Assembly (NCBI GenBank): GCA_048636195.1
Contig: JAIVXD010000001.1
Location: 1 to 33,012 of the forward strand
Direction of reading: 5' to 3'
DNA: 33,012 nt
Source: Anaerolineales bacterium
GTDB lineage: Bacteria > Desulfobacterota > DSM-4660 > Desulfatiglandales > Desulfatiglandaceae
Under the pieces are notes generated by a model. That model was given only the letters and a program-made list of their open reading frames with translations. It ran no database searches and had not been told where the DNA came from. Positions 2,787-33,012 of the stretch are shown here, in pieces. A program made the position numbers and the translations under genes. Position 1 is the first letter of the stretch; each line of letters opens with the position of its first letter.

Positions 2787-2803
2787 TTTATTTAAATCCG
2801 TTA

Positions 2804-3295: not shown

Positions 3296-3534
3296 TTCAA
3301 TGCGCTCAGCCACGCCCGTTTTTGTTTGGCTGTTTGTGCTACACCCCACATGCCCTTTACTTTTGGATCGGAACAGATAGACTCTACCATCAGCTTGAGC
3401 TTTTCCTGCTCGGTCTTTCCTCCCCTTCCCGCAGATATCGCCTTTGTAATAAGCACATTTGAAGTAATTTTTCCAAAAATATCGACCAATTTGGGCTTGA
3501 TAATCGTATCTCTGACTGACTTTGCGCCATTCAT
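3292..3534 (-). CDS. hypothetical 80-aa protein between the hydrogenase large subunit and its protease
   Basis: It starts 4 nt after the large-subunit stop and ends in a GTGA overlap with the protease start. I recognise no motif. Coding status rests on this operon-style packing only. Confidence 0.45.
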   Translation of the reverse strand: MNGAKSVRDTIIKPKLVDIFGKITSNVLITKAISAGRGGKTEQEKLKLMVESICSDPKVKGMWGVAQTAKQKRAWLSALK

Positions 3535-3538
3535 AATA

Positions 3539-4963: not shown

Positions 4964-5874
4964 TATTTTTCCCTCCCTTCTTTAGCAAGATGGGGATAGA
5001 TTGAGACCGGCATGGAATAGCGATATCCGACGCCGACTATATCTTCTTGAAACATCAACTCCCCTGCTGGCAGAATTGACGACAGCGCATTTACAATCTT
5101 AGCTCCCTGTTCAAGAGCGCCCGGCGTTGGCCCCATGCAGCCACGGCACGGCATGTTGCTTTTTAAGCACTTTGCGCCACATCCCTCACGGGTGGCCGGT
5201 CCCATGCAAAGCACACCTTGTTCCAGAAAACACAGGTCAGGGTCAATGTGATCAAGCTCATGCGGAGAGAGAACCCCGTCGGTCACGAAATCCCTTGATG
5301 CCACGAGCATCTTGTCCTTCTTGCGGTCGCACTCCTCACACAGATTGCGTAGCTTTACCTCCGGAGTCCTCCCTTCAACGAGCGCAACGAGTGTATTCTT
5401 AATCGCTGAGGGAAGCGGCGGACACCCCGGTATGTAGTAATCGACTTTAACGACCTGGTTAAGAGGCATGACGTATTCCTTGAGTGGTGGGATTTCGAGC
5501 CCGGAAGGAATTTTCCCATCTACAGTGCTTTCGGTGTCAACATAGGCGCGCTTCAGAACATCCTCACGCATGAATAGGTTCCTAAACCCGGTTATTCCCC
5601 CAAAACAGGCGCAAGTACCAAGGGCAATAATAGTCTTTGCCTTTTCACGAAACGTTTTCAGGATTTCTTCGTTGTCTTCATTGGCCACGGCGCCCTCTAC
5701 AAGCCCTATATCGACATCAGGAACATCTTTGATGTCCATTATGGTAGAATACCTTATGTCTATCAGTTCCAGCAAGTCGAAAAGCTCCATGTGCAAATCA
5801 AGCAGAGCAATATGGCAGCCAGAACAGCCCTGTAACCACGTGGTGGCAACGGTAACTTTTTCAGTCATTTTCAC
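4963..5874 (-). CDS. mvhG: [NiFe] hydrogenase small subunit, MvhG-like, no Tat signal
   Basis: CSGCHIALLD near the N-terminus, then GTCACFGG, YIPGCPP and a Cys-rich C-terminus (CMGPATREGCGAKC...CRGCMGP). The absence of a twin-arginine leader implies a cytoplasmic enzyme. Confidence 0.9.
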   Translation of the reverse strand: MKMTEKVTVATTWLQGCSGCHIALLDLHMELFDLLELIDIRYSTIMDIKDVPDVDIGLVEGAVANEDNEEILKTFREKAKTIIALGTCACFGGITGFRNLFMREDVLKRAYVDTESTVDGKIPSGLEIPPLKEYVMPLNQVVKVDYYIPGCPPLPSAIKNTLVALVEGRTPEVKLRNLCEECDRKKDKMLVASRDFVTDGVLSPHELDHIDPDLCFLEQGVLCMGPATREGCGAKCLKSNMPCRGCMGPTPGALEQGAKIVNALSSILPAGELMFQEDIVGVGYRYSMPVSIYPHLAKEGREK

Positions 5875-5877
5875 TAC

Positions 5878-7491: not shown

Positions 7492-7514
7492 TGCGCATAC
7501 CTCCTTTCTTGAAT

Positions 7515-7550
7515 TCAGCCCGCTCCATCTGCTGTTGGTGGACGGGCTGA
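7515..7550 (-). promoter_or_regulatory. stem-loop in the predicted 5' leader of the HdrA-like/mvh genes
   Basis: tcagcccg (7515-7522) pairs with cgggctga (7543-7550) in an 8-bp perfect stem, with further partial pairing inside. It sits about 15 nt upstream of the RBS. Function is unknown. Confidence 0.35.
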
Positions 7551-7599
7551 GTTGAAAGCCTGTAACTTCTGGAATTCTGCCGACATTTTTTAGTTAAAA

Positions 7600-7628
7600 A
7601 GTTTAGCTTAAGCAATCTTGGGTGTCAA
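7600..7628 (-). promoter_or_regulatory. candidate sigma70-type promoter for the HdrA-like/mvhGA unit
   Basis: On the minus strand this reads TTGACA (7628-7623), a 17-nt spacer, then TAAACT (7605-7600), inside the 260-nt hypF to hdrA-like gap. This is a sequence match only. Confidence 0.3.
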
Positions 7629-7751
7629 TTGAAAACAAAGCACAAAATAAAAATACAGACCCTTTAACGGCATCCTTACATATAGGCCAAAAAGTAGTTT
7701 ACACTTTTTTAAAAAACAAGTTCCCGGCTTGCAGCTTTGTCGGCTCTGACG

Positions 7752-10067
7752 TCATCCAATCCCCAGATCTCTGGTGATAGCCGCTGCCACAACCGCCTGT
7801 CCCAAAGAGATGCCTCCGTCATTGGTTGGAACAAGGGAATGAGTAAAGACCTGAAAACCTTTATCTTTCAGGGCATTTCTCAGGCCGGCCAGTAAAGTTG
7901 CGTTTTGAAAAACCCCGCCGCTTAAAACCACACGATTTAGATCGGTCTCTTTACGGAGAATTGCGCAAAGTTCTGAAAACAACCTGACCAGGGTCGTGTG
8001 AAATTTAGCACTGATATCAGACACCGACAAATTGTTTTCAATGTCTTTTACCACACCACGGATAATAGGATGAATCAGTATCCTGCGCAAGTCCTTTCCT
8101 TGTTCCCATTCATAGTCATAAGACTCCTCTGTCTCTTCGCGTATCGCCATCTCCAGTTCCATAGCGGCCTGTCCTTCGTAAGTCACCTTCTTTCTGATGC
8201 CGAGAATGGCGGCGATTCCGTCAAAGAGACGACCGAGACTGGATGTTTGAGGGGAGTTGACCTGTTTGGAGATCATTTCCAGGATAATTTTGATCTTTTC
8301 CTTCTCAAGCTCCTGAAAGAGCTGGAGGTCTAAGTCATGGAAAGCTTCGCCAAATGCATTGAAAAGATAACCCACGGCCATTCGCCACGGTTCTTTAATC
8401 GCTGCCTGGCCGCCAGGCATGGGGAGATAAACAAGATGGGCCGCGCGCGTAAATTGATGTGCCTCGACAATTAATACCTCTCCACCCCAGATACAACCGT
8501 CTGTGCCATAGCCTGTTCCGTCAAAAGAGAGCCCCAGCACCGGCCCGTCCAATCTGTTTTCCGCCATACAGCTTACGATGTGAGCATGGTGATGCTGCAC
8601 TGCAATTTTTTTCATTTCTTTTTGTTTCCTGGCGTAATGGGCGCTGAGATAGTCAGGATGAAGGTCATGGGCCACGATTTGGGGATCAATGTCGAGAATT
8701 TGTTTCATATGCTGCACGGTCAGCTCAAGAAAACGATATGTCTCAATATTTTCCAGGTCCCCTATGTGCTGGCTGATGAACGCGTTTTTCCCCTTGGTCA
8801 GGCAGATGGTGTTTTTCAGCTCAGCACCGCAGGCAAGTATCTGTGGAATTTTCTCTTTAAGGAAAACAGGGGTGGGAACGTGGCCTCGCGATCGGCGGAT
8901 AAAGCGAGTTGCTCCATCCACCCTTCTGACAATGGAATCGTCGCAGCACAAATAGATGTCCCTGTTGTGGATCAGAAAATAATCGGCAATAGCGCCAAGG
9001 CGTTCAAATGCTTCATCGTTATCAATAGAAATCGGTTCTTCACTTATGTTGCCGCTGGTCATAACCAACGCTGTGAAATCAGAACGTAAAAGAAGATAGT
9101 GAAGCGGGCTATATGGCAGCATTGTCCCGAAATTTTTATTAAACGGCGAGATTTCAGGTGAAAGCGGGTTTGGCTCTTTTTTTCTCAAAAGGACAATCGG
9201 GCGCTGAGGAGAGCTCAGAATGACCTCTTCATCCGGTTCGATATAGGCGTATTTACGAATCCGCTCAAGGTCGTAAGACATCAGTGCAAACGGTTTTTCT
9301 TCCCGGTGTTTCCTGCGGCGCAGACGGATGACCGCATCGTTTTTTCCGGCATCCACGGTAAGATGAAATCCCCCCAAACCTTTTATAGCGACAATATGCC
9401 CTTGTTTGAGAAGATCAACCGTCCTTTTGACAGGATCCTGGGCCAAAACCGGTATGCGCCGGTTGTCATAGAGAGAAACACTCGGGCCGCATATCTCGCA
9501 GGCGTTTGGCTGGGCATGAAATCTGCGGTCTGCTGGATCATCATATTCTTTCCGACATTTTGGGCACATTTTAAAATGTTTCATGGAGGTATTCGGACGG
9601 TCGTAGGGAATATCGTCTATGATGGTATACCGTGGGCCGCAGTTTGTGCAGTTGATGAAAGGATATTGATATCGCCGGTTTTCAGGATCAAACAGCTCGT
9701 GAAGACAATCATCGCATATAGCCATGTCCGGGGAGATCAGAGTAGATCGCGAAGACTCTTTTCTGCTTGTCTGGATGGTAAATTCCTTATAACCTATAAC
9801 CGGCTCGTGCGAACTTGAAATCTCTGTAATGTGGGCAAGGCGCGGGCTCTTTTCACCAAGGTCATGGACAAATGCCTTTATCTTTTGTTTGCTCCCCTCA
9901 ATGTGGATGATTACTCCAGAGGAGGTATTAGCAATGTCTCCATTGAGCTCGTAATGGAGTGCTAATTGATAAACAAATGGGCGAAACCCAACCCCCTGAA
10001 CAATACCGTTTGCCGTTAGTTTTCGTCCAACTATAATTTTTTTTGTACCTGAGCGGCATTTCATCAT
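7752..10067 (-). CDS. hypF: carbamoyltransferase HypF
   Basis: Acylphosphatase-like N-terminus (GIVQGVGFRPFVY). Two zinc-finger pairs (CDDCLHEL...CTNCGPRY and CPKCRKEY...CEICGPS). YrdC-like KGLGGFHL and a Kae1-like C-terminus. 771 aa. Confidence 0.95.
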   Translation of the reverse strand: MMKCRSGTKKIIVGRKLTANGIVQGVGFRPFVYQLALHYELNGDIANTSSGVIIHIEGSKQKIKAFVHDLGEKSPRLAHITEISSSHEPVIGYKEFTIQTSRKESSRSTLISPDMAICDDCLHELFDPENRRYQYPFINCTNCGPRYTIIDDIPYDRPNTSMKHFKMCPKCRKEYDDPADRRFHAQPNACEICGPSVSLYDNRRIPVLAQDPVKRTVDLLKQGHIVAIKGLGGFHLTVDAGKNDAVIRLRRRKHREEKPFALMSYDLERIRKYAYIEPDEEVILSSPQRPIVLLRKKEPNPLSPEISPFNKNFGTMLPYSPLHYLLLRSDFTALVMTSGNISEEPISIDNDEAFERLGAIADYFLIHNRDIYLCCDDSIVRRVDGATRFIRRSRGHVPTPVFLKEKIPQILACGAELKNTICLTKGKNAFISQHIGDLENIETYRFLELTVQHMKQILDIDPQIVAHDLHPDYLSAHYARKQKEMKKIAVQHHHAHIVSCMAENRLDGPVLGLSFDGTGYGTDGCIWGGEVLIVEAHQFTRAAHLVYLPMPGGQAAIKEPWRMAVGYLFNAFGEAFHDLDLQLFQELEKEKIKIILEMISKQVNSPQTSSLGRLFDGIAAILGIRKKVTYEGQAAMELEMAIREETEESYDYEWEQGKDLRRILIHPIIRGVVKDIENNLSVSDISAKFHTTLVRLFSELCAILRKETDLNRVVLSGGVFQNATLLAGLRNALKDKGFQVFTHSLVPTNDGGISLGQAVVAAAITRDLGIG

Positions 10068-10711
10068 TTCTTAATATGCTCTAAAATCCACCCAAACCAG
10101 TTATTGAGTCCCTTTTTTGTCTGACATGAAATTTCAAATATCTCAATTTTGGGATTGATTTTTAGGGCAGACTCGCGGATCTTATTCATATCACAATTCA
10201 CATAGGGGAGGAGATCTATCTTGTTAATCAGGAGCACCGATGCCTCATGAAACATCAAAGGGTATTTTTCCGGCTTGTCATCCCCTTCGGTGACGCTTAA
10301 TATCATTACCTTGCAGTCTTCCCCCAGATCAAATTCAGCAGGGCAGACCAGGTTCCCCACGTTTTCGATAAACAAAAGATCTATTTCTTTTGTGTTAATA
10401 GAGCCAAGCGCGGCCTTTATCATATTCCCGTCCAGGTGGCATGCGCCATCTGTATTGATCTGCACGGCGGTGGCCCCCGCACGGATGATTCTTTCGGCGT
10501 CTGCCGAAGTCTGGATATCCCCTTCAATGACCCCGATACGTAAGTTTTCTTTCAGATGTCCGACGGTGTTCTCCAGCAAGGTGGTCTTTCCGGCTCCGGG
10601 GGAACTCATAAGATTCAGGACCAGCAGGTTGTCTTTTCGGAATAACTCTCTGTGTTCATTAGCGATACGATCATTGACCTCAAGAATGTTGCGTACAACA
10701 GGCACTTTCAA
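10064..10711 (-). CDS. hypB: hydrogenase nickel-incorporation GTPase HypB
   Basis: P-loop SSPGAGKTT and ENVGNLVCPA. There is no His-rich N-terminal tract. 4-nt overlaps with both hypC and hypF. Confidence 0.95.
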   Translation of the reverse strand: MKVPVVRNILEVNDRIANEHRELFRKDNLLVLNLMSSPGAGKTTLLENTVGHLKENLRIGVIEGDIQTSADAERIIRAGATAVQINTDGACHLDGNMIKAALGSINTKEIDLLFIENVGNLVCPAEFDLGEDCKVMILSVTEGDDKPEKYPLMFHEASVLLINKIDLLPYVNCDMNKIRESALKINPKIEIFEISCQTKKGLNNWFGWILEHIKK

Positions 10712-10935
10712 ACTAAAACCTCCTTATCTGCCAGTTCCCGAAGGAGCTTAAGAGATTCTTGCGCCTCTTTGGGATCTATTTTGTGGATGGCAAATCCTGC
10801 GTGAATAATTACATAATCTCCGACAACTGCATCGGCAAGGAGCATCAGGGACGTGGAACATGTCACGCCGCCAACATTGATTAAGGCCATCTCATCGTCG
10901 ATTTTTATCACTTTCGCAGGTATGGCAATACACAT
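10708..10935 (-). CDS. hypC: hydrogenase assembly chaperone HypC
   Basis: 75 aa, N-terminus MCIAIPAKV with the essential Cys2. AGGAGGGG RBS upstream. Confidence 0.93.
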   Translation of the reverse strand: MCIAIPAKVIKIDDEMALINVGGVTCSTSLMLLADAVVGDYVIIHAGFAIHKIDPKEAQESLKLLRELADKEVLV

Positions 10936-11209
10936 CTATGTCCCCTCCTATATTTAATCTGTTCGTATTTAATCTATCCGGCTCCACGCCAATAATAACG
11001 GTCTTAGGCGTATTTCCAATGGTTTGGCTCAAGGTTAATGATTCCAGCAGGACAATCTGATGCAAAGAGTTCTTGTATTTCATCTTTGTTGGAATGTCGC
11101 TTGCTTTGAACCGGCAGACCGTTCCTGAATGCTTTCCCTTTTTTTCCGCATCAAGGACTATGAGATGGAATGGAGATGCAACTTTTTGATTTATGCTAAC
11201 ATTGCACAC
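10892..11209 (-). pseudogene. remnant of a second hydrogenase maturation endopeptidase gene (central portion only)
   Basis: HLIVLDAEKKGKHSGTV and SLHQIVLLESLTLSQTIGNTPKTVIIGVEP match the middle and late conserved blocks of HybD/HycI-type proteases (Asp and His ligand regions). The N-terminal GNxxxxDDGxG block is missing because upstream sequence is AT-rich non-coding. The frame runs out of register into hypC. Confidence 0.4.
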
Positions 11210-11410
11210 CAGAAACTGCGATTGCAGATAATAAAATTAATATATTACCATTTTTTTTGGAAATTACAAGCAGAAAATGTAACATCAATGAGTTTGGGCA
11301 ATTTCTGGAAACCTGACACCTGACAAATTCGATTTTTTACAGGTTCATCAATTAAGATAAACATATACATTCAATTAATCCTGTCCAAAGAGAAAGATTT
11401 TTTGTATATA

Positions 11411-22351: not shown

Positions 22352-23482
22352 TCAATCCAAAGCCCCCTTCTCCACCAGATCAAGGAACACCGGAACTATC
22401 TCCGGATCTAACTGTGTGCCGGCAACCTCTTTGATTATCCCCAAAGCCTTTTCTTTTGTAAAACATCTGCGGTAGGGCCTGTCCACCAATAAAGCCGCAT
22501 ACGTATCAGCAACGGCCAGGATGCGTGCCCCAAAAGGGATATCCTCTCCTTTAAGCCCGTTCGGATACCCACCGCCGTCATACCGCTCATGATGATGAAG
22601 GGCCAGGGATTTTACCTCCCACGGAAACTCTGCCTTTTCGATTATTCTGGCGCTAACAACAGGGTGTTCCTTAATAACACCGAATTCAGCATCTGTCAGG
22701 GACCCGAATTTCAAGAGAATCCCTTCCTGAAGCCCAATCTTGCCGACATCGTGCAGTATGCCGGCAACACGGATACCTTCAATTTCGGACTTAGAAAAAT
22801 TCATGGCTTTGGCTATAACGACAGCATATTTAGAAACCCGTTCAGAATGACCGCGAGTGTAAGGGTCCTTTGTCTCTATGGCCTCGGCCAAGGCTCTGAC
22901 GGTGCTGAAATAGCTTTTGAGCAGCTTCTCGTATAATTTTGCATTCTCGATAGCAATCGCAACGTGAACGGAGATGGTAGATAACAGCCGGAGATCTTTC
23001 TGACTAAATGGTTTTTTAGATTCTTTCTCTCCAAAATTAATCAGACCTACAAATTTATCCTTCACCACCAGAGGACAGGACAGGGTGATCTCCAATCCGA
23101 TTTTTTCCGACATTTTGCCGAAGAACTCTCTTGCGAACAATTCGTCTATATCGGACGGCAGAATCGGTTTTCTCCAATCAGTAATCCATTTGACAACTTC
23201 ATTTTCTGTCTTTATGCTGATTTCCTTCTCAATGCGCTTCTGTTTTAGCCCCTTGACCGACTTGATGTTCAACTCCCAGGACTTTTCATCAAAAAGCATG
23301 AGATATCCCGATGTTACCCTCACAAGCTCCACAAACATGTCGGTGGCAATATCGACAAGCTCCTTCAAATTAAGACCGGAAGCCAGCAGTTTGCCCTCAA
23401 GATAGACAGCATAAGACCGAAAACTTATCTCATCTAATTCTTCATCAAACTCTCTTCTCAAATCTTTATCCATAGGGAGCAT
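22352..23482 (-). CDS. GAF-domain HD-GYP phosphodiesterase
   Basis: The N-terminal GAF module is paralogous to that of the kinase at 12090-14222. The C-terminal HD-GYP signature is HDVGK...HHERYDGGGYP. Confidence 0.88.
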   Translation of the reverse strand: MLPMDKDLRREFDEELDEISFRSYAVYLEGKLLASGLNLKELVDIATDMFVELVRVTSGYLMLFDEKSWELNIKSVKGLKQKRIEKEISIKTENEVVKWITDWRKPILPSDIDELFAREFFGKMSEKIGLEITLSCPLVVKDKFVGLINFGEKESKKPFSQKDLRLLSTISVHVAIAIENAKLYEKLLKSYFSTVRALAEAIETKDPYTRGHSERVSKYAVVIAKAMNFSKSEIEGIRVAGILHDVGKIGLQEGILLKFGSLTDAEFGVIKEHPVVSARIIEKAEFPWEVKSLALHHHERYDGGGYPNGLKGEDIPFGARILAVADTYAALLVDRPYRRCFTKEKALGIIKEVAGTQLDPEIVPVFLDLVEKGALD

Positions 23483-23683
23483 AACTCCTTGTTAATATGC
23501 CTCCCAAAAAGAGGCAGCAATTTCATATCAACAATTTGGAAACGTAACTTCTCAAAAAGTTCGTGCCTCAACCCAACCTACAAAAATCAATCACTTGGAA
23601 GAACTTAATTTATCAGGGCGAAACCCAACAAATCGATTTAATAGCTTTTCGTTCAGGCACTATCTAAGGAAAGAGGTCAATAC

Positions 23684-25270
23684 ATGGTGGAAAAAAAATA
23701 TATTGTGGTCACAGGTGTGCCGAGCATTAAAAAATATGTATTCGGCACAGATCAATTAAAAGAAATCCGAGGGGCAAGTGCACTTCTTGAGGATTTAACA
23801 CGTAATCGAATAATCGAATATCTCAATAAATGTCCACAATTAGAAATCGAAACCGTGTTCGTGGGCGGTGGGGCCGGGCAGTTCATTATCGACGCTAAAG
23901 AAGAAGACCTGAATATGCATTTGAAAACGCTTGAAGGCGAATTCCTAAAAGTGACCCGCGGTGGGGCGCGACTGAGCTGGGGGAAGGCCCTGTTTGAGGG
24001 TAACAATTACCGGCAAACCTTGATACATGCTGAAATGAATGCCATGCAAAAGACCGAAGAAGCGCCCTTTCATCCTTTTGCCCGGCTCCACACAGGGTTC
24101 ATTCGGGAATGCGACAGTTGCGATGGTATGGTCTCTGCCCAATCTCAAAAAAAAGGCGAGAGAGATTCTCTGTTGTGCGACATCTGCTGTGCAAAGAGAG
24201 AATTCAATTATGAAAAGGCAAGGAAAAACTTTTTAAATGAGCTTTCCGAATACCTCAGCGTGAAAGGCCTTCACGTTGAGCCGGCCCAAGACTTTGAGCA
24301 AATCGGTGCACAATGCCGAACCAGACGTAGCTATACAGCGCTTGTATATGCGGATGGTAACGCCATGGGTAAGTTAATCAAGACTATTGACCGCAAGGAT
24401 TTATTTAAGTTTTTTTCCCGAACCGTTGACACCTCCATTAAGGAAGCCTGCTTCGAGGCATTGTTTGAGGCCTGCTTTCTCGACTTCAAAAAACCTTCTG
24501 CCATTATTCCGGCTGAAATCTTGATGCTTGGTGGTGACGATCTGCTGGTCTATCTAACCGCAGAAACAGCGTTTCCGTTTGCTGTCAAGGTGGCGGAAAA
24601 GTTTAACGCAATAACCAAAAAAAAGATGGAAGCTACCGAGGAGGGAGAATTCTTTTTAAAGAAAACGGAAGGCAAAGGGTTGTATATTTCCATCGGAATT
24701 GCTTTCGGGAAAAGTCATACGCCTTTTTCCATTCTACTGCACCAGGCAGAAGAACTGCTCAGCTTTGCTAAAAAGGCAGGATCGAATGATCCCGCTGCAG
24801 GAAAGTATTACGCTCCCGCTTATATCGACTACCACCTTTCCACCAACTACAATCAAATCAATGTGGTCGACAGCCGAATTAATCATCTGGAAGTTCCCGG
24901 CATGCAAGGGAAAAGGCCTATCAGGCTTTACCAGAAACCATACTCACTGACGGACGCTAAAGCATTGTTGGAGTCAGCCCGAAAACTTGTGCAATCCGGC
25001 ATCCCCAAGACTCGGCTAAATCGCCTGGGAAACGCACCGGTCATGGGAAAGATGAACGGCACATTGGAATGTCTCAAACTTTACACTCGAACAAAGGCGG
25101 ATCAACGTCTTGTAATATGGAACATCCTTGACCGCTTTGACTGTATCGGCAATATGCCGTGGAACGAGGAGGGTATCGTGGATACAACCATGCTGGTGGA
25201 TCTGATGGAACTTGTCGGGTTTTGTGGAAATGACAACATTAACGCCGGAAAGGAGTACGATGCAACATAA
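23684..25270 (+). CDS. cas10: Cas10, compact HD-less form with intact GGDD cyclase motif (type III-D-like)
   Basis: The N-terminus starts directly with a palm-like block (YIVVTGVPSIKKYVFGTDQLKEIRGASALL...FVGGGAGQFII). Cys4 zinc ribbon CDSCDG...CDICC (nt about 24110-24190). Second palm ALVYADGNAMG...LMLGGDDLLVY, with GGDD at nt 24530-24541. No HD motif or N-terminal extension. AAGAGG RBS. Confidence 0.8.
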   Translation: MVEKKYIVVTGVPSIKKYVFGTDQLKEIRGASALLEDLTRNRIIEYLNKCPQLEIETVFVGGGAGQFIIDAKEEDLNMHLKTLEGEFLKVTRGGARLSWGKALFEGNNYRQTLIHAEMNAMQKTEEAPFHPFARLHTGFIRECDSCDGMVSAQSQKKGERDSLLCDICCAKREFNYEKARKNFLNELSEYLSVKGLHVEPAQDFEQIGAQCRTRRSYTALVYADGNAMGKLIKTIDRKDLFKFFSRTVDTSIKEACFEALFEACFLDFKKPSAIIPAEILMLGGDDLLVYLTAETAFPFAVKVAEKFNAITKKKMEATEEGEFFLKKTEGKGLYISIGIAFGKSHTPFSILLHQAEELLSFAKKAGSNDPAAGKYYAPAYIDYHLSTNYNQINVVDSRINHLEVPGMQGKRPIRLYQKPYSLTDAKALLESARKLVQSGIPKTRLNRLGNAPVMGKMNGTLECLKLYTRTKADQRLVIWNILDRFDCIGNMPWNEEGIVDTTMLVDLMELVGFCGNDNINAGKEYDAT

Positions 25271-25964
25271 CATCAAGATCGCCCTTGACCTCCATTTTAT
25301 TTCCAAATGGCATGCCGGGTCAGGAGAAAGCAGCTTGAGCATCGACCGACTCATACAAAGGGATGCCAAAGGGTGGCCATTTATCCCCGGCAGTACCCTA
25401 AAAGGCATGGTGCGGGAAAACTGCGAAAAACTGTCCCGGACATTGAACTTTCCTGAGCCTGCCGATCCCCATCAAATCGACTTGACGATTCAGGACAGGT
25501 TTCAACCTCTGGATAAACTGGAATCGCCGGTGGATCGGATATTCGGAAACAAATACCAGAGCGGCAATCTGTTTTTCAGGGATGCACGCCTGGATACGCC
25601 GCCGCCACATTATTTTGCTAGAAATCAAAGCCGAACCAGCGTTTATCGTGTACTCGGTACGGCAAGAGAGCACCATCTCTTTTCAAGTGAGTACGTTGCT
25701 CCCATGACCTTATCGACCCTGATTGAGGGATACCAGCGAAAAATGACTTATCTCAATGAGGGAGACACTCCTTATGAATACTGCCTGCTTATCGCTGGAA
25801 TAATGAGCTTGGAGCGGCTGGGCGGAGACAAAAGCACAGGGAGTGGAAAGGTTCGCATACAAATTAATTCCATTGAATACAACGGCATATCTTTGGATAA
25901 AGAATCGGTTTTTGAATATCTGGATGAGGAGTTGTACAGATTGACTAAAGAGGAGATGGCATGA
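25260..25964 (+). CDS. cas7: Cas7-type RAMP (Csm3-like), copy a
   Basis: WHAGSGESSLSIDRLIQRDAKGWPFIPGSTLKGMVRE matches the Csm3 pattern G-rich loop, xID, xxRD, IPGSSxKG. Start is ATG 25260 with GGAAAGGAG upstream, an 11-nt overlap with cas10. Confidence 0.8.
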   Translation: MQHNIKIALDLHFISKWHAGSGESSLSIDRLIQRDAKGWPFIPGSTLKGMVRENCEKLSRTLNFPEPADPHQIDLTIQDRFQPLDKLESPVDRIFGNKYQSGNLFFRDARLDTPPPHYFARNQSRTSVYRVLGTAREHHLFSSEYVAPMTLSTLIEGYQRKMTYLNEGDTPYEYCLLIAGIMSLERLGGDKSTGSGKVRIQINSIEYNGISLDKESVFEYLDEELYRLTKEEMA

Positions 25965-27121
25965 ACTATTACCGCCTTACAGCCACACTTCTGGCTCCGC
26001 TCGCGATCCAACGAACCCGCCAGAACAATGCACCCGGGGCCTTGCCCTATCTGCCTGGGAGCAGTTTGCGTGGTGCAGTGGCAGCCAAATATCTTCGGGA
26101 GGGAGGAAGCCCTGAGGATGATGAATTCAGGACACTTTTCATCGAAAATCCGGTATTTTTTCCAAATCTGTTGCCAACTGACCATGATGGAAAAATCATT
26201 TCACAGGTGCTGCCGCTGACCAGTGTATCGTGCAAACGATATCCGGGTTTTACAAGCGAAAATGGTCATAGTGTTCGGGACACCTTGGTGAAAAAGATGT
26301 TGGAGCGTAACGATCCGGATAATTATCGTGAGCAGGCCTGCATAAAGTGTGACAATGATCTAAAGGGACTTTCCGGGTTTTGGAACGGTAATATGGCAGC
26401 TCCCCAGATGTTTCAGCCGACCATGTTCTTCCAGCGTCATACCGGAATCGATCGGACAACCGGTACTGTTGCACCTAAAATATTTTTCATCACCCAGGCC
26501 ATTGCTGACTTTCAAAAAACTCCGACGGGTGATTATGAACGTCAGATCCTTTCCGGCGGCATGTTTATGAATGACCGGCAGATAGCTGTACTGGAGCCAT
26601 TGTTTAAAACCCCTCTGTTTGCCGGTCAGGATCGTACACGGGGAATGGGGGAACTGCAAGTCGCCGTTGAACCTTTTAATATTGAACCTCCGGATATTGA
26701 TACCTGGGACCGAAAATTTAAAGACATAATAAAACATAATGCCCGTGGCAATCTCGACACGGCTCTTTTATCCGGCCTTTATTTCAGCCTTAAACTGGAA
26801 TCCCATGCCATTCTTGTTGATGATTTTTTGCGCCCGACAACTGAAATAGAGCTCACCTTGCCGTGCGTTGAGCCAGTTTTGAAGGTAACCGGATCACAGC
26901 TCATCCGGGGATGGAATGATGCCTGGGGGCTGGCCAAACCGGATGATATGGGAATCATAATGGGAAGTGTTTATCTGTTCCGATATACCGGCAACAATCG
27001 GGAAGGCCTGCGGCAGTATCTGAACAAGCTGGCCATTGACGGAATCGGACTGCGGCGCGCGGAAGGTTTTGGCAGCGTGTTGATCTGTGATCCACTGCAT
27101 ACTCGAAAGGAGGCGATTTAA
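25961..27121 (+). CDS. csx10: Cas5-like RAMP, Csx10-like by position and architecture
   Basis: YLPGSSLRGAVAAKY near the N-terminus, Cys pairs (CKRYPGF...CIKCDN) and a C-terminal glycine-rich RAMP loop GLRRAEGFGSV. It is the third gene after cas10 and cas7, as in type III-D loci. ATGA overlap with the upstream gene. Confidence 0.65.
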   Translation: MNYYRLTATLLAPLAIQRTRQNNAPGALPYLPGSSLRGAVAAKYLREGGSPEDDEFRTLFIENPVFFPNLLPTDHDGKIISQVLPLTSVSCKRYPGFTSENGHSVRDTLVKKMLERNDPDNYREQACIKCDNDLKGLSGFWNGNMAAPQMFQPTMFFQRHTGIDRTTGTVAPKIFFITQAIADFQKTPTGDYERQILSGGMFMNDRQIAVLEPLFKTPLFAGQDRTRGMGELQVAVEPFNIEPPDIDTWDRKFKDIIKHNARGNLDTALLSGLYFSLKLESHAILVDDFLRPTTEIELTLPCVEPVLKVTGSQLIRGWNDAWGLAKPDDMGIIMGSVYLFRYTGNNREGLRQYLNKLAIDGIGLRRAEGFGSVLICDPLHTRKEAI

Positions 27122-27546
27122 TGGATGTAATAAAATTTGCGGAGCCTATATTAAATCCTGAAACATTGAAGGCAATCGACTTGCATCTTGAGGCCTTATA
27201 CGAAAGTAAGACAACGATAGATATCGGTCAAAAAATGGCGGACGTCGAGCTTAAAAGCAGTCAAATACGCAATTTGGAAAACCTGGTGATGTCCACAAAA
27301 CGTTTTTCGGAAATTATTAATTTCATTAAAAATCAAACAGGGAAAGATAAAAAAGGGAAGTGGCCTCTGATTGCGGATACCCTCCTCCATCAACTCGAAG
27401 CTCTGGAGGATAAGGCCAGAGAGATTGGAAAAGATAATCCCGGCATAACTTTTGAGGTAAAAAGGCAACTGGCAAGGGGATGGGTAAAACAGATAGTGGC
27501 TCATTATTTTTTCGCTGATTCGAAAAAAAAGAAGGATAAACTATGA
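27121..27546 (+). CDS. cas11: Cas11-like small subunit (Csm2-like)
   Basis: 141 aa, predicted all-helical. LKSSQIRNLENLV resembles the SQ(I/L)R motif of Csm2/Cmr5. TAATG overlap with csx10 and an AAGGAGG RBS. Confidence 0.6.
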   Translation: MDVIKFAEPILNPETLKAIDLHLEALYESKTTIDIGQKMADVELKSSQIRNLENLVMSTKRFSEIINFIKNQTGKDKKGKWPLIADTLLHQLEALEDKAREIGKDNPGITFEVKRQLARGWVKQIVAHYFFADSKKKKDKL

Positions 27547-28019
27547 AAACAGATTTGCTGGAATCCTACTCATTTTATTTACTTCAGGACGAAGCAATGC
27601 GCAAAAATGCCTGCCAGGCTGTGGACCACTTTCTCAAAGTCCAACAGCCTGTTAAAAATGCACAACTGCACGCCATTCCTCCCGTCATGCAGGCCAAGGG
27701 TCTTTCAGGACTTCGGGGTTTGATTGATAATCAGAAAAGCAAAAACACTAAAAAAGAGAATAAGAAATTTTGGTTATTTTTATCGGATCTTATCCTGTCA
27801 AATCCCGGCCCCGAGTTTTCGCTTAGAAAATTTTTGCTTGACCAACCGCAAATAAAGGCCTTGCTTCAGGATGAGACATCAGCAATAGAAAAAAAAGAAC
27901 AAAAAAAGATTCGGAAAGCCAACAAGGCTATTGTAGATGAGATCATGGAATATGTTCTTCCAGTCTATTTTGAGCACTTCAATTGTCATTATTTCTATCG
28001 AACAAGGCAAGGAGCTTAA
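27543..28019 (+). CDS. second small helical subunit, distant tandem paralogue of the Cas11-like protein
   Basis: 158 aa. VKNAQLHAIPPVM...GLIDNQKSKNTKKENKKFW parallels LKSSQIRNLENLV...NFIKNQTGKDKKGKW of the preceding protein. ATGA overlap with the upstream gene. Confidence 0.35.
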   Translation: MKTDLLESYSFYLLQDEAMRKNACQAVDHFLKVQQPVKNAQLHAIPPVMQAKGLSGLRGLIDNQKSKNTKKENKKFWLFLSDLILSNPGPEFSLRKFLLDQPQIKALLQDETSAIEKKEQKKIRKANKAIVDEIMEYVLPVYFEHFNCHYFYRTRQGA

Positions 28020-28021
28020 TC

Positions 28022-28852
28022 ATGAACACCCGAAATTATTTTCGAAACAAGATCCGAATTGAAGGAACACTGGCCTTTGAAACTGCTTTTCACATTGGAT
28101 CCGGTAAAGAGGGCGAGTTGGCGACAAATATGGGAGTGTTGATAGCCCCGGACGGCAGGCCCATTCTGCCTGGATCTACACTTAAAGGTAATTTCAGGTC
28201 GTTAGCCGAGCGACTCTCCGGATATCTGGGCTTAAGCGCCTGCCTGCTCGATGATGGACTATCCGGTGATGGATGCTTTACCGGGCTGTCCGACCAGGAA
28301 AAACGCAAAGCAAAATACGAAGTGTTCAAGGAATTGAAAACCGAGGACGCAAAATTGAAATGGCTGCACAATAATACCTGCGAGATCTGCCGACTCTTTG
28401 GATCACCACTGCATGCCTCACGTATTTTTTTCAGCGACGGCCTGCTAATCAATTGGAGCAACGCGCTTCAAATCAGAGACGGCGTTTGCATTGACCGGGA
28501 TTCGGAAACCGCCCGCCACGGCGCAAAATACGATTTTGAAGTTGTTCCGGCAGGGGCCGCGTTCAAGATCACCATTGAACTGGAAAACCCGGTTGACAAG
28601 GAACTGGCCCTGGTCGGGGCTGTGTTGACTGAATGGGAAGCAGGATTTCGAATAGGCGGTTTTACATCCCGTGGCCTCGGCAGGGTGCGGCTCGAGGATA
28701 AGACTGTCCGGCAGGTGGATTATACAGACCCAGATCAACTCAAACGGTATCTGTTGAAACGCGAAATGCAGGAGGCGAAGACATTGCTGACCGAAAGCCT
28801 GAAAAGGCTGCTCAATCATCAGGGAGGAGACCATGCTGAAAAAAATAATTAA
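28022..28852 (+). CDS. cas7: Cas7-type RAMP (Csm3/Cmr4-like), copy b
   Basis: FHIGSGKEGELATNMGVLIAPDGRPILPGSTLKGNFRSLAE, CEICRLFGS and RIGGFTSRGLGRV (G-rich loop). Start is ATG 28022 with AAGGAG upstream; the track ORF starts at 27983. Confidence 0.85.
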   Translation: MNTRNYFRNKIRIEGTLAFETAFHIGSGKEGELATNMGVLIAPDGRPILPGSTLKGNFRSLAERLSGYLGLSACLLDDGLSGDGCFTGLSDQEKRKAKYEVFKELKTEDAKLKWLHNNTCEICRLFGSPLHASRIFFSDGLLINWSNALQIRDGVCIDRDSETARHGAKYDFEVVPAGAAFKITIELENPVDKELALVGAVLTEWEAGFRIGGFTSRGLGRVRLEDKTVRQVDYTDPDQLKRYLLKREMQEAKTLLTESLKRLLNHQGGDHAEKNN

Positions 28853-29837
28853 CAGCGCCCGGATCGAAATGGACATTATTCCCATTGATCCCTTGCTTAT
28901 CAAGTCAGGGCAGGCCAGCGTGAGCGGTGTGGACATGGCATTTGTCAGGACATATCGCAGTGGTGAGAAAGATGAGCCCTTTATTCCCGGCAGCTCCCTC
29001 AAGGGCGTGATTCGCTCCTACGCGGAAAAAATATGCCGCAGTCTGAAAGATGATCCAGTTCCCGTCTGCCTGCCCTATCTCAAACCTAAAGGCAAGGCTG
29101 AAAAAGGCGAGGAGCGCCAATACTCTTGCGGTTTACTCTTTGAAAAGTTTAAAAAAGACAAAAAACTGGAAACCGTTCCCACACCGGATGTTTACAGGCT
29201 TTCATGTCCAGCCTGCCGTTTATTTGGTTCGCACTGTTTTATCGGTCGGCTTGCCACATCCGATGCTTATTTAACGGAAAGCTTTAAAGCCCAGGGACGG
29301 CCGGTATTTGAAATCCGTGACAGCGTTGCCATCGACCGGATCACCGGCGGTGTAGCTAATGGACCATTTGATCTGGAAGTGCTCACCCGCGGTGAGTTCA
29401 GTACCAGTCTGGATATACGTAATTTCGAACGCTGGCAGTTGGGCATGATCGCCCTTGTCCTTCGGGACATGGAAGAGGGATTGGTTCGAATCGGTTTTGG
29501 AAAAAGCCGGGGGCTCGGGCGCTTCAAGGCCAGGATTACCCGTTTCGGGATCACCTATTATCATCGAAAACCTGATACCTTATCCGGTCTTCAGGCCCTG
29601 TGTTCTGAAAACGATTGTCAACAGTATGGCTTTTTTGAAGAATCCAAAAAAAATGCCTTTGAGCTACCCCAGGCTGAACCCAACGGGCTTCGAAACGAAT
29701 ATGACCTCACGGATAGCTGGAAAACGGCTCTTGCTCCGGCGGTGAACGATCTGATCCGGTATATCGAAACGGTGTCGTGGCCGACTGATCTTGAAAAGTA
29801 TCTTGAAGGAGGGAAACATGCCGTTTCTGCAGGTTAA
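28833..29837 (+). CDS. cas7: Cas7-type RAMP (Csm3/Cmr4-like), copy c
   Basis: SGQASVSGVDMAFVRT...PFIPGSSLKGVIRSYAE, CPACRLFGS and RIGFGKSRGLGRF. GGAGGA RBS and a 20-nt overlap with copy b. Confidence 0.85.
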   Translation: MLKKIINSARIEMDIIPIDPLLIKSGQASVSGVDMAFVRTYRSGEKDEPFIPGSSLKGVIRSYAEKICRSLKDDPVPVCLPYLKPKGKAEKGEERQYSCGLLFEKFKKDKKLETVPTPDVYRLSCPACRLFGSHCFIGRLATSDAYLTESFKAQGRPVFEIRDSVAIDRITGGVANGPFDLEVLTRGEFSTSLDIRNFERWQLGMIALVLRDMEEGLVRIGFGKSRGLGRFKARITRFGITYYHRKPDTLSGLQALCSENDCQQYGFFEESKKNAFELPQAEPNGLRNEYDLTDSWKTALAPAVNDLIRYIETVSWPTDLEKYLEGGKHAVSAG

Positions 29838-30357
29838 TGATTTTGATATTGACTCTTTTTTCGATTTAATCTGTCGATATCATACCCATGCTGCACAACA
29901 TTTTGAAACATTGCCCATCTTACTGGCTTTTTCACCGGCCCGGGCACTCTTTGAGATCCTGAACACGGATGAATCTTTTTTCAAGAACACAGACCAGGGG
30001 CGGGTCTTTTCACCCGAGGGCGAGCTGAAATGGCGACGAATTAGGGATAAGATGCGCGTTGTTTTTTTGGGGGATGTCGCTCCGCCGGAAGGGCTTGAAG
30101 ACCGCTCATCCGAACTATCTGATTTGAAAAAGGTTGTATCTGAACTCATCCTTTGGGGGGAAAGGACTGATACCAAAAAAGAATGGATCGAACAGCAGGT
30201 GCCCCATCGGTTTCAATACCCTGTTTTCACAACACGCTACAACCGAGGCAGGGCCGCCATTATAATCGAAAATTGGAATGATGTATTCGGGTTTCCGCAG
30301 GTTAGCCGCTACCACAGTCTAAAAGAAATGCCAGGAGAGATAAATGCCCAAGGATGA
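29818..30357 (+). CDS. uncharacterised type III-D accessory subunit in the Csx19/all1473 slot
   Basis: About 179 aa with no motif I can name. It lies between the third and fourth Cas7 genes, where III-D loci carry the all1473/Csx19-type gene. Start is ATG 29818 behind GGAGGG (the track start 29791 is a TTG). It overlaps both neighbours. Confidence 0.4.
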   Translation: MPFLQVNDFDIDSFFDLICRYHTHAAQHFETLPILLAFSPARALFEILNTDESFFKNTDQGRVFSPEGELKWRRIRDKMRVVFLGDVAPPEGLEDRSSELSDLKKVVSELILWGERTDTKKEWIEQQVPHRFQYPVFTTRYNRGRAAIIIENWNDVFGFPQVSRYHSLKEMPGEINAQG

Positions 30358-31429
30358 AACATTCTGGAATCCATATCGTCTGATCCCTGTTCAGGATACC
30401 ATTTCAAAAAAAAGGCCGTTGACTGACGAAAAATTCAGGGCCAACAGTGGCCGAATCTACTGCACAATCGAGAATCTTACCCCTCTTTTCATCGGCGGTA
30501 ATCGAAATAATTCGCAACAGTTTCTAATCAGTAATGGAAAGTACACTATCCCCGGCAGCTCACTCAAGGGAATGCTTCGCTCGCTTGCTGAAATTATAGG
30601 TGGAGGATGCAGTGTTACCGACTCCAATGGCCGGTTTAATAAAACGTATGCAGCCTGCAACAAGGTACATTCCTTGTGCGTAACCTGCCGCATGTTTGGC
30701 ATGATGGAACGTGGAAGAGGAGCCAAAGTACACAAAGGCAAAATCTTTATTAGCGATGCCTTGACACGGGAGGAAAAACCGGAAACAAAGCTCTTCGATG
30801 TTCAGCTTTTTAATCATGCTACGAAGCACGAACCATTTTACAGAACTCCCCAAACCGGCAGGCTTGATGGTAAGTCTCGTAAATTCTACTTTCATCAGCC
30901 AAAAAGAAAGAATTCTGCCTTGGAACCTACAAACATTCAGAAATTTGTGGATAAAAAAAATGCTATTCTGCCTGGTTGTCAATTCGAGTTTGAGATAGAT
31001 TTTGTAAGTCTGGAAAAATTTGAGCTTGAACTTCTGGTTTATATCCTGGCCCTTGAAGAGAATGTGGATGTTATTATCGAGGATGGGAAAATCCCATTAA
31101 AAGGTCCCATGCGGCACAAGCTTGGATACGCAAAACCATTGGGGCTGGGTAGCTGTCGTATTGATTTAAACAAAATTGAATATTTCGCAGCGCCGGCAGA
31201 GCGTTTCTCTTCTCTTGGTCAGATGGAAAACACAGTTTACGAAAGAGATACTCTGAAGACCTTGATAAAAACATTAACACATAGATTTGTATCCGACACT
31301 TCCGCCACCATGCAACAACTTCGAAAAATGATGGTATGGGATGAAAATGATCCAAGGGATTTTGCATATCCCAAGAATCATTGGTTTAATAACCCCTTGA
31401 ATTCAGGAAAGACACTAAAACACATCTGA
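30344..31429 (+). CDS. cas7: large Cas7-type RAMP (Csm5-like / cyanobacterial-type RAMP), copy d
   Basis: N-terminal FWNPYRLIPV resembles the F-x-NPY-x-F-(I/V)-P opening of the III-D-associated RAMP family. Also IPGSSLKGMLRSLAE, CVTCRMFG and YAKPLGLGSC (G-rich loop). Confidence 0.75.
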   Translation: MPKDETFWNPYRLIPVQDTISKKRPLTDEKFRANSGRIYCTIENLTPLFIGGNRNNSQQFLISNGKYTIPGSSLKGMLRSLAEIIGGGCSVTDSNGRFNKTYAACNKVHSLCVTCRMFGMMERGRGAKVHKGKIFISDALTREEKPETKLFDVQLFNHATKHEPFYRTPQTGRLDGKSRKFYFHQPKRKNSALEPTNIQKFVDKKNAILPGCQFEFEIDFVSLEKFELELLVYILALEENVDVIIEDGKIPLKGPMRHKLGYAKPLGLGSCRIDLNKIEYFAAPAERFSSLGQMENTVYERDTLKTLIKTLTHRFVSDTSATMQQLRKMMVWDENDPRDFAYPKNHWFNNPLNSGKTLKHI

Positions 31430-31495
31430 ACAGATAAATTTTTATTGGGCATTTAAAAAGCCAAAAACACAACCTCACTAATTGGGAGAAATACT

Positions 31496-32668
31496 ATGAA
31501 ACCTGTATTCTTAAGCTACAGCCGAAAAAATGTTAAGGATGTTCAGGAAATCGCCGACACTCTATGTGCTGGAGGCATCCGAATCTGGCAGGATATAGAG
31601 TCTTTGGCCACCGGCAATACTGATGAACAAATCCGGAAAGCCATTCAAGAAGAATGTGCCGCTTTCTTCCTGTACATTACAGATGAAAGTGTGGAATCGG
31701 AATTTATCCGGGAAGTCGAAATCAAGGAAGCATTAAATAAAAGCAAAAGAGATGAAACTTTCCATATTGTTCCCTTGATACACATGCCCTTAGAAAAAGC
31801 AAATCAAAAGTTACAAGGCAGTATGCTGGGTGATATTTCAAGATATAATGGTGTTATCATTCATGATGGTGAAACGCTTTCCGAAGCTTCCAGTAAAATC
31901 AGAAAGATTTTGCTGAAAGCGATTATCAAGCGCCCTGCGGATCAGGATTTTGCAATCTCCTTAATGACCTATTCAAGAACACCGGGTAATATTCAACCAC
32001 AACTTGATCTTGACTGGAGCCGATTAAATTTTTCCGATAAAATTATGTCTGACACTATCTGGAAGACACACCTCCTGCCTGCCTTGAAGGATGTCAAGGA
32101 TGCCTTGTTGAATGCCGGGGTGACGCATATAAGACTGTTTGCAAAAGCAACCCTGTCAGCGAGTATGGCATTCGGATATATTTTCAGGCGAGAGACAGGA
32201 TTTAAAATCATAATTAGTCAGGGAGAGCAATTGTGGTCTTCTCAGGATAGACCGGAAAAGCCATCGGGATTGAAAATCAAAGCGCAATCAAGAAATATCG
32301 GGTCAAAACATCTCGGAGTAAATCTTTCCATAACGAGATCTATTGATAACGGCCTTGAAAATTACATAGATAAACAGCGTCTTTCTCTTCGCTCTGAGCT
32401 TTTTTGTGAACCGGCAGAAGGTCCTTCCCGGGAGTCAGTGCCGAATCATAATGTAGCTTCTGCGATGGCTTGGGAAATCGGTAATGCGGTAAGAGATGCA
32501 AAGAGTAAATACAATATCACCGATATTCATATTTTTGGAGCAATGCCATTGGGACTGGCCGTTCTGATCGGTTCAGAGTTAAACGCCTGTGGCAGAGTCC
32601 ATCTTTACGAATTTAATAAATCTGAAAGCATGTATTATCCCTCATGGACACTTGAGGGGAACTACTGA
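31496..32668 (+). CDS. TIR-SAVED fusion protein, predicted cyclic-oligoadenylate-activated NADase effector
   Basis: The N-terminus VFLSYSRKNVKDVQEIADTL...IRIWQD...ESEFIREVEI is a TIR pattern. The C-terminal roughly 240 aa contains two CARF-like pseudo-repeats (HIRLFAKATLSASMAFGYIF and IHIFGAMPLGLAVLIGSELN...VHLYEF), typical of SAVED. GGGAG RBS, 66 nt after the last cas7. Confidence 0.8.
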   Translation: MKPVFLSYSRKNVKDVQEIADTLCAGGIRIWQDIESLATGNTDEQIRKAIQEECAAFFLYITDESVESEFIREVEIKEALNKSKRDETFHIVPLIHMPLEKANQKLQGSMLGDISRYNGVIIHDGETLSEASSKIRKILLKAIIKRPADQDFAISLMTYSRTPGNIQPQLDLDWSRLNFSDKIMSDTIWKTHLLPALKDVKDALLNAGVTHIRLFAKATLSASMAFGYIFRRETGFKIIISQGEQLWSSQDRPEKPSGLKIKAQSRNIGSKHLGVNLSITRSIDNGLENYIDKQRLSLRSELFCEPAEGPSRESVPNHNVASAMAWEIGNAVRDAKSKYNITDIHIFGAMPLGLAVLIGSELNACGRVHLYEFNKSESMYYPSWTLEGNY

Positions 32669-32882
32669 TTTTCGCAATTCTCTTGTAGCCTTTCCCTATT
32701 AAAAAAAGGCCAAAAAAAGGGGGTGGTTACAGGAAATTTATAATTATTTGTTATTGCTGATAAAAATTGTTGTTTACGATGGGAAATAAGGTGGTGAAAA
32801 CATGAAAAAAGAGTCGAAAAAGAGAGGTTACAGAAAAGCCTATTCTAAGTATCTGTATTTATTGTCTGGAAAAAGGCTGCCA

Positions 32883-33012
32883 TCTGAAACTGAGACCTGA
32901 TGAATAAGGGATTGAGACGTTTTTGAATATATCGTACAAATGGATAATGTCAAATACTCTGAAACTGAGACCTGATGAATAAGGGATTGAGACTGATAAT
33001 CCTGATTGTTCG
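32883..33012 (+). CRISPR. start of a CRISPR array: two 36-nt repeats, one complete 39-nt spacer, one truncated spacer
   Basis: tctgaaactgagacctgatgaataagggattgagac occurs identically at 32883-32918 and 32958-32993. Spacer 1 is 32919-32957. The repeat 3' end ATTGAGAC resembles the ATTGAAAC/G 8-nt tag, supporting plus-strand transcription. The array runs off the window edge. Confidence 0.85.

Follow-up and report, generated by a model that had tools for sequence, protein, structure and literature searches.

In the 33,012-nucleotide stretch of contig JAIVXD010000001.1 analysed here (assembly GCA_048636195.1; hereafter the window), a type III-D CRISPR-Cas operon ends with the gene for a genuine two-domain protein of 390 amino acids (aa), in which an N-terminal TIR domain is followed by a C-terminal SAVED domain. 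We consider it probable that this TIR-SAVED protein is an accessory effector of the type III-D system, which destroys nicotinamide adenine dinucleotide (NAD+) upon the cyclic oligoadenylate (cOA) signal of Cas10. The gene adjoins a cas operon including a Cas10 with the GGDD cyclase motif, and this linkage is conserved in related loci. With somewhat less confidence, and on the analogy of its characterised relatives, we favour cyclic tri-AMP (cA3) as the ligand. The coordinates of the gene and of its surroundings are collected in table 1.

A TIR domain joined to a pseudo-dimeric SAVED domain

Profile searches cover nearly the whole protein, since the PADLOC model SAVED5--SAVED_TIR matches residues 3-386, almost end to end (E 9.8e-60). 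The two parts are also recognised separately, by Pfam TIR_2 at residues 4-98 (E 1.1e-11), by Pfam SAVED at residues 198-386 (E 5e-31) and by NCBIfam SAVED at residues 139-387 (E 4e-42). When the sequences in the PDB were searched, the best match was chain 7qqk_A, with an E value of 4e-13 for the single sequence and of 1.6e-21 for the family profile; the same profile reaches the SARM1/TIR-1 NADase across residues 3-130 (E 3.2e-5). An exact-sequence look-up found no record identical to the 390-aa protein.

An AlphaFold2 model, computed from an alignment of 38 homologues, has a mean predicted local distance difference test (pLDDT) score of 92.8 and a predicted template modelling (pTM) score of 0.91; its TIR part consists of alternating strands and helices up to a helix at residues 128-143. 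Used as the query of a Foldseek search against the PDB, this predicted model retrieved 7qqk_A first, a cA3-bound TIR-SAVED that is matched over the whole chain (E 9.1e-21), in a superposition of 418 aligned columns that includes the arrangement of the domains (TM-score 0.78 by query, TMq, and 0.71 by target, TMt). The next matches were the SAVED domains of Cap4, Cap5, a viral SAVED ring nuclease (PDB 9R8S), CalpL and SAVED-CHAT.

The duplicated nature of the SAVED domain is visible at two levels. In profile-profile comparison by HHalign, residues 198-228 pair with residues 330-360 (P 0.0014), while control comparisons of the SAVED halves with the TIR domain gave P values of 0.053 and 0.13. In the model, both halves follow the same order of a long helix, a strand, a helix and two strands, namely helix 186-206, strand 211-217, helix 220-229 and strands 237-242 and 245-248 in the first half, and helix 318-339, strand 343-349, helix 352-361 and strands 367-374 and 379-386 in the second. 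The motifs of the first half, HIRLFAKATLSASMAFGYIF (residues 211-230) and KIIISQ (237-242), have their partners in IHIFGAMPLGLAVLIGSELN (344-363) and VHLYEF (368-373). In sequence, this duplication leaves a faint but genuine signal, in keeping with the pseudo-dimeric fold known for SAVED domains; the claim is supported chiefly by the structural match of the model, which carries it.

The predicted catalytic glutamate of the TIR domain is E75, which phmmer and MAFFT alike align with E84 of 7QQK, the TIR-SAVED of Microbacterium ketosireducens (hereafter Mk TIR-SAVED). In the latter protein, the E84Q substitution abolishes NADase activity and the BB-loop mutant D45A/L46A is inactive (Hogrel et al. 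2022, bioRxiv 10.1101/2022.05.04.490601). E75 is invariant in 38 of 38 homologues and in all 31 sequences that could be classified by genomic context; W31, D33, L37 and G40 are invariant too, L37 being the counterpart of BB-loop L46, and the 390-aa protein possesses all 28 residues that are invariant in the family, E75 among them. For Y115, a tyrosine of the NAD site in Mk TIR-SAVED, phmmer and MAFFT place the counterpart at different residues of a variable loop. On the sensor side, W394 of Mk TIR-SAVED stacks on an adenine of cA3, and R388, on the back face of the adjacent subunit, is required for multimerisation (bioRxiv 10.1101/2022.05.04.490601). The residue aligned with W394 is F373, a position that is aromatic in 30 of 31 homologues, and that aligned with R388 is R367; N363 is invariant in the same alignment of 31 sequences.

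These results largely bear out an earlier note on this DNA, which had been made from the letters and their open reading frames (ORFs). The TIR hallmarks that it quoted are all present (VFLSYSRKN at residues 4-12, IRIWQD at 28-33 and ESEFIREVEI at 67-76), with TIR_2 matching this part of the protein, and the Glu-rich segment that it put forward as catalytic is the one containing E75. Its reading of two similar beta-alpha units as a pseudo-dimeric SAVED domain agrees with the HHalign pairing and with the equivalent positions of these units in the model, and the architecture of TIR plus SAVED is found both by the profiles and by the whole-chain match to 7QQK. The structural comparison that it had proposed gave the anticipated outcome, with the C-terminal domain matching 7QQK, Cap4, Cap5 and CalpL and with the glutamate aligned. 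Its description of the protein as compact marks no special feature, for 390 residues is a normal size in a family of which nearly all members have 386-403 aa.

The last gene of a conserved type III-D operon

The TIR-SAVED gene lies 66 bp 3' of the last cas7-like gene, on the same strand, and closes the operon. No terminator-like sites were found in 31300-33012, a region that includes the 66-bp gap, and a promoter scan returned promoter-like sites only at the rate expected by chance. The set of components of a type III-D locus is present, namely Cas10, Csx10, Csx19, several Cas7 proteins of the repeat-associated mysterious protein (RAMP) superfamily, Cas11 and a CRISPR array. The HD dipeptide is absent from the first 150 residues of Cas10; of its other features, two CxxC pairs lie at residues 143-146 and 165-168. 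As its only outputs, a Cas10 without HD nuclease should be left with signalling by cyclic nucleotides and with the RNA cleavage that the complex performs.

A hidden Markov model (HMM) iterated on the CD-NTases that neighbour members of the family retrieved 36 ORFs, none of them in the window, so that no CD-NTase (SMODS) gene adjoins the effector here, as it does in operons of CBASS, the antiphage signalling system based on cyclic oligonucleotides. By Pfam and PADLOC annotation the window likewise contains no CARF protein, no second SAVED protein and no recognisable ring nuclease; Pfam annotation of its other 20 large ORFs found only hydrogenase, hyp, che and signalling genes. The statement of the earlier note that no CD-NTase is nearby holds, therefore, throughout the visible window, and its choice of Cas10 as the source of the ligand is reinforced by the intact GGDD motif, by this absence and by a last-gene position that is kept even where TIR-SAVED identity falls to 43-46%. 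That the protein is the only candidate effector for abortive infection can be retained in part: it is the sole recognisable effector of the visible locus, while abortive infection is an assumption.

The family is a small one, with 45 clusters at E below 1e-5. The close ones come from Desulfobacterales and other deltaproteobacterial metagenome-assembled genomes, and none was found on viral contigs, which gives no hint of a phage-borne copy. To survey genomic contexts, 72 loci were retrieved (three from a genome collection, the census being drawn from a scan of metagenomes) and classed with HMMs iterated from the Cas proteins of the window and from the CBASS proteins of three loci. In seven distinct loci with the full operon visible, namely the window, L001/2, L003/4/20, L014, L016, L021 and L022, the gene order is identical to that of the window and TIR-SAVED comes last, over a range of 43-95% identity in this protein. 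In other loci (L008/24, L017, L023, L034 and L035), TIR-SAVED is preceded by a RAMP gene, followed by cas6, or both, and in L007 it lies 5-10 kb from a type III-A module, with transposases between. In the CBASS context, a CD-NTase adjoins TIR-SAVED, in many loci together with an E1-like ThiF gene; L009 combines TIR-SAVED and CD-NTase with HORMA and TRIP13.

A neighbour-joining tree (corrected p-distances, 100 bootstraps, rooted on 7QQK; not a maximum-likelihood tree) places the window protein in a clade, at 43-95% identity and with a bootstrap of 96, whose other members are ten sequences linked to CRISPR and three for which no context is known. In another clade, with a bootstrap of 100, 13 members are CBASS-linked and one has no known context. 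L008 falls outside both clades and L034 and L035 group with further CBASS sequences, weakly (bootstrap 56), so that CRISPR-linked and CBASS-linked lineages interleave. These groupings imply more than one transfer of the effector between CBASS and type III CRISPR, which fits its designation as a 'moonlighting CBASS effector' (Hoikkala et al. 2024, PMC11229360).

The metagenome contig L001 from JGI, which carries a 95%-identical TIR-SAVED, matches positions 23661-32736 of the window with its own positions 2145-11242, at 94% DNA identity. The block begins 23 bp 5' of cas10 and ends 68 bp past the TIR-SAVED stop codon, limits which indicate that the Cas genes and the effector travel as one unit. 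The flanks are different. L001 has cas6, a gene for an AAA ATPase and a solitary CRISPR repeat (2068-2101) just 5' of cas10, and its downstream side bears two arrays. In the window, by comparison, cas10 is directly preceded by a che operon, the 23.7 kb before cas10 contain no cas6, and the first array of L001 is missing. These differences suggest that the module has been rearranged, or is mobile, at boundaries bearing repeats.

The 344 bp that follow the TIR-SAVED gene in the window are occupied by a CRISPR leader and array, which the earlier note did not mention. Positions 32698-32864 of the probable leader are 93% identical to the stretch just 5' of the second array of L001. The array opens 215 bp after the TIR-SAVED stop, with two copies of the repeat TCTGAAACTGAGACCTGATGAATAAGGGATTGAGAC (32883-32918 and 32958-32993), the 35-nt core of which (the repeat minus its first base) recurs in nine copies, spaced by about 74 bp, 3' of the 95%-identical TIR-SAVED in L001. 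The 3' end of the repeat, ATTGAGAC, resembles the usual 8-nt 5' handle of CRISPR RNA (crRNA) and thus suggests that the array is transcribed in the direction of the cas operon. Tandem Repeats Finder called no array in the window, because only two repeat copies precede its end, and Rfam had no match anywhere in it, CRISPR-DR families included.

Table 1. Positions of the TIR-SAVED gene, its parts and its neighbours in the window
Feature	Position (nt)	Strand	Evidence or remark
GAF plus HD-GYP (HD_5) gene	22352..23482	-	divergent from cas10, 200 bp apart
cas10 (528 aa, without HD domain; GGDD at aa 283-286, nt 24530-24541)	23684..25270	+	PADLOC Cas10, E 8e-71; Pfam Cas10-Cmr2_palm2
Rest of type III-D module (in order: cas7/csm3, csx10 (cas5), cas11/csm2, 158-aa ORF, cas7, cas7, csx19, TIGR03986-family cas7-like RAMP)	25212..31429	+	PADLOC, Pfam, NCBIfam (Csx10, Csx19, TIGR03986)
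158-aa ORF	27543..28019	+	no Pfam or NCBIfam family; HHalign against Cas11
Shine-Dalgarno-like GGGAGA	31484..31489	+	6 nt 5' of the TIR-SAVED ATG
TIR-SAVED gene	31496..32668	+	ATG start; 390 aa plus stop codon
TIR domain (predicted NADase), about aa 1-145	31496..31930	+	Pfam TIR_2; model; profile match to SARM1/TIR-1
Codon GAA of E75, predicted catalytic glutamate	31718..31720	+	aligned with E84 of 7QQK
SAVED sensor domain, about aa 150-390 (CARF-like halves about 150-268 and 269-390)	31943..32665	+	NCBIfam, Pfam, HHalign
Probable CRISPR leader, 214 bp	32669..32882	+	similar to L001
Start of CRISPR array, cut by the end of the window	32883..33012	+	two identical 36-nt repeats, a 39-nt spacer and a partial spacer

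Within the operon, the 158-aa ORF weakly resembles the adjacent Cas11/Csm2 in profile comparison (HHalign P 9e-5, 109 columns), and all III-D loci of this type that were examined have it in the same place; its product is probably another, divergent small subunit of Cas11 type, and this resemblance led us to reject it as a second effector or ring nuclease. Several ORFs of the module (those starting at 25212, 27983 and 29791) are listed from TTG starts, with an overlap of 37-59 nt with the preceding gene. Their counterparts in L001 are called 10-16 codons shorter (234, 275 and 178 aa), from which the true cas starts probably lie further downstream. Upstream of the operon, 23 kb on the opposite strand carry hydrogenase and hyp maturation genes, a hybrid histidine kinase, a che operon and the GAF-HD-GYP gene. 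The last of these heads the complete che operon, with cheR, a methyl-accepting chemotaxis protein, cheW, cheD, cheY, cheB, cheA and cheC, and is absent from the homologous CRISPR loci; it too was rejected as a second effector or ring nuclease, and we regard it as unrelated to the CRISPR module.

The searches also retrieved SAVED proteins that are related to the family but have no TIR domain (L056 9869-10780, L058 9833-10753 and L070 8999-10234), encoded by ORFs of about 305-410 aa in which a short N-terminal segment, probably a coiled coil, stands in place of the TIR domain. In the type III loci of L056 and L058 these genes are flanked by cas6 and cas10, and in L070 RAMP genes are nearby; their products could be sensors, sponges or ring nucleases.

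The signal, its ligand and the alternatives

By homology with its relatives, the system may be expected to work in the following way. The crRNA-guided III-D complex would bind an invader transcript, and the HD-less Cas10 would then use its GGDD cyclase site to make a cyclic oligoadenylate, most likely cA3. The SAVED domains would bind this ligand between subunits in a head-to-tail arrangement and so bring the TIR domains together, forming a composite active site centred on E75, and the ensuing hydrolysis of NAD+ would halt host metabolism and, with it, replication of the invader. The NADase chemistry, the ligand-driven multimerisation, the nature of the ligand and the outcome, dormancy or death, are all carried over in this scheme from homologous proteins.

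We lean towards cA3 because both characterised relatives, Mk TIR-SAVED and the type III-D protein TSR1, respond to it, because the closest SAVED structures bind cyclic trinucleotides, and because the CD-NTases of the sister lineages are related to CdnC and CdnD, being nearest to E. coli CdnC (E 7e-69) and to CdnD, the synthase of cAAG. CdnC and CdnD make cyclic trinucleotides. More generally, the products of Cas10 range from cA3 to cyclic hexa-AMP (cA6) and those of CD-NTases are cyclic di- and trinucleotides, a shared range that would make cA3 the messenger common to both types of cyclase.

Several points weigh against the scheme as a whole, and those concerning R367, the clade differences and the published proposal of another ligand count against cA3 as well. 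The window contains none of cas6, cas1 and cas2, so that the system may not be complete; in the homologous loci L001, L003, L016 and L021, cas6 is found upstream. R367 is not conserved, since the position is Arg in only 8 of 14 CRISPR-linked sequences and Ile in the 95%-identical homologue, and the contacts that bridge the subunits may thus differ from those of Mk TIR-SAVED. The BB-loop Asp (D45 in Mk TIR-SAVED) is Ser in the 390-aa protein. Moreover, the CRISPR clade shows fixed differences from the CBASS clade, with H369 in place of Q, L370 in place of C and W384 in place of C. H369 and L370 are on the strand running to F373 (residues 367, 369, 370 and 384 correspond to about nt 32594-32650), and these changes could have shifted the ligand specificity; taken with the variation of R367, they may reflect altered contacts with the ligand or at the interface. 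Finally, cyclic tetra-AMP (cA4) has been proposed tentatively for the TIR-SAVEDs of CRISPR loci (Hoikkala et al., PMC11229360).

The alternative that survives best accordingly retains the logic of the effector and alters the messenger, the CRISPR clade being re-tuned to cA4, or cA6, and not to cA3; we hold this to be possible, though unlikely. Both cA4 and cA6 are more usual signals of type III systems, some SAVED domains bind cA4 (CalpL, for example, which is a Foldseek match here), and the clade-specific H369/L370 and W384 lie beside the ligand-stacking position. The published proposal was based on one CRISPR TIR-SAVED that co-occurs with Csx1 (PMC11229360). Yet the closest structures bind cyclic trinucleotides, cA3 in 7QQK and cAAA-type ligands in Cap4, TSR1 of a III-D locus is specific for cA3 (bioRxiv 10.64898/2026.09.16.751991), and there is no cA4-type CARF effector or ring nuclease in the locus. 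The interleaving of CRISPR and CBASS lineages, too, is simplest with a ligand made by both types of cyclase.

It is quite improbable that TIR-SAVED acts independently of Cas10, sensing a cyclic nucleotide of the host or one supplied in trans (cyclic di-AMP, or the product of a distant CD-NTase) and being merely parked beside the CRISPR genes. Defence genes do cluster in islands, a member of the clade (L007) is separated from its III-A module by transposases, and a haloarchaeal TIR-SAVED is reported to be active without its cognate cyclase, by sensing cyclic di-AMP of the host. A parked gene, however, is hard to reconcile with a last-gene position maintained in the seven distinct III-D loci down to 43% identity, with the short gap free of terminators after the upstream gene, and with a block from cas10 to TIR-SAVED that moves as one unit in the comparison with L001; moreover, the HD-less Cas10 would then have no output besides RNA cleavage by the complex.

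We give still less weight to the idea that the TIR domain produces a signalling nucleotide for a further effector (an isomer of cyclic ADP-ribose, as with ThsB of Thoeris), without depletion of NAD+. TIR domains with the same Glu can indeed be cyclases or signal generators, as in Thoeris and in plants, but neither the window nor the homologous loci contain a ThsA/SLOG-like or other downstream receptor, and both characterised TIR-SAVED relatives hydrolyse NAD+. That the gene is an inactive relic or decoy is scarcely credible, since nothing specific speaks for it beyond the cas6 and adaptation genes not seen in the window, while the frame is intact, the 28 invariant residues including E75 are in place, the model is of high confidence (pLDDT 92.8) and the close homologues are full length with E75 kept.

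The reading of TIR-SAVED as a Cas10-dependent NADase has a further, more speculative extension. No ring nuclease was recognisable in the window, nor in the two homologous loci for which 10 kb of downstream sequence are visible. Conceivably, though we would not expect it, the stand-alone TIR-SAVEDs of the CRISPR clade constitute an 'off-switch-free' output of III-D systems, in which depletion of NAD+ is the sole output of the HD-less Cas10 beyond the RNA cleavage expected of the complex. If true, this would contrast with the view of type III signalling as normally reversible. The changes at H369, L370 and W384, and the missing R388 counterpart of some members, might reflect a re-tuned ligand (e.g. 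cA4) or an assembly unlike the CBASS filament.

Relation to known TIR and SAVED effectors

In its TIR domain with the aligned glutamate, its two-halved SAVED domain and its whole-chain fold, the protein described here is a member of the TIR-SAVED family. As an accessory effector of CRISPR systems it is of a rare type, though one already catalogued, and involves no new principle. Two-domain TIR-SAVED proteins were reported in seven of about 1000 type III loci, III-D included (Hoikkala et al. 2024, NAR, PMC11229360). That class is defined by bioinformatics only, and the present gene fits it. In the literature searched we found no stand-alone CRISPR TIR-SAVED that has been characterised biochemically.

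Among proteins with other effector or sensor domains, Cat1 (CARF-TIR) is an accessory NADase of type III systems that is switched on when cOA drives it into filaments (Baca et al. 2025, PMC12162218), but its sensor is a cA4-binding CARF domain instead of SAVED and its homology to the present protein is limited to the TIR domain. The SAVED-nuclease CBASS effectors of the Cap4 type (PDB 7YIB, 6VM6, 6WAN) possess a homologous SAVED domain that binds cyclic trinucleotides, with E values of 3e-9 (single sequence), 1.6e-19 (family profile) and 1e-16 to 1e-13 (Foldseek); their effector domain is a DNA endonuclease, whereas here it is a TIR. Cap4 also binds cAAG.

Mk TIR-SAVED, the best match in the PDB by sequence and by structure, has the same order of N-terminal TIR and C-terminal SAVED. 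The two proteins have in common the catalytic Glu, a W-x-D motif, the Leu of the BB loop and, at the position that stacks on adenine, an aromatic residue. Identity is only about 21%, the 7QQK chain has 433 aa versus 390 here, the BB-loop Asp is replaced by Ser and the counterpart of R388 is variable in our clade; the genomic context is a CBASS CD-NTase in the one case and a III-D operon with Cas10 in the other.

TSR1, the TIR-SAVED-Crn4 protein of Arachnia propionica, is also the sole effector of a III-D locus and is a cA3-activated NADase with E86 as its catalytic Glu; its C-terminal Crn4 ring nuclease makes it an obligate dimer and self-limiting (bioRxiv 10.64898/2026.09.16.751991). The PDB matches listed no TSR1 chain. 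The protein of the window has no Crn4, for it ends four residues past SAVED (the profiles extend to residues 386-387, and the model has no extra domain), and by analogy with the two-domain Mk TIR-SAVED it is expected to form filaments and to be without a built-in off-switch. TSR1, with its fused ring nuclease and atypical dimer, is the only CRISPR-native TIR-SAVED studied so far. The present locus and its clade thus offer a clean natural case of a plain two-domain TIR-SAVED wired to an HD-less III-D Cas10, with CBASS-linked sister lineages at hand for comparison, and hence a good system for studying how innate (CBASS) and adaptive (CRISPR) signalling come to exchange one sensor-effector, which cyclic oligoadenylate it reads, and whether type III immunity can run without the ring-nuclease off-switch that TSR1 carries within its own chain.

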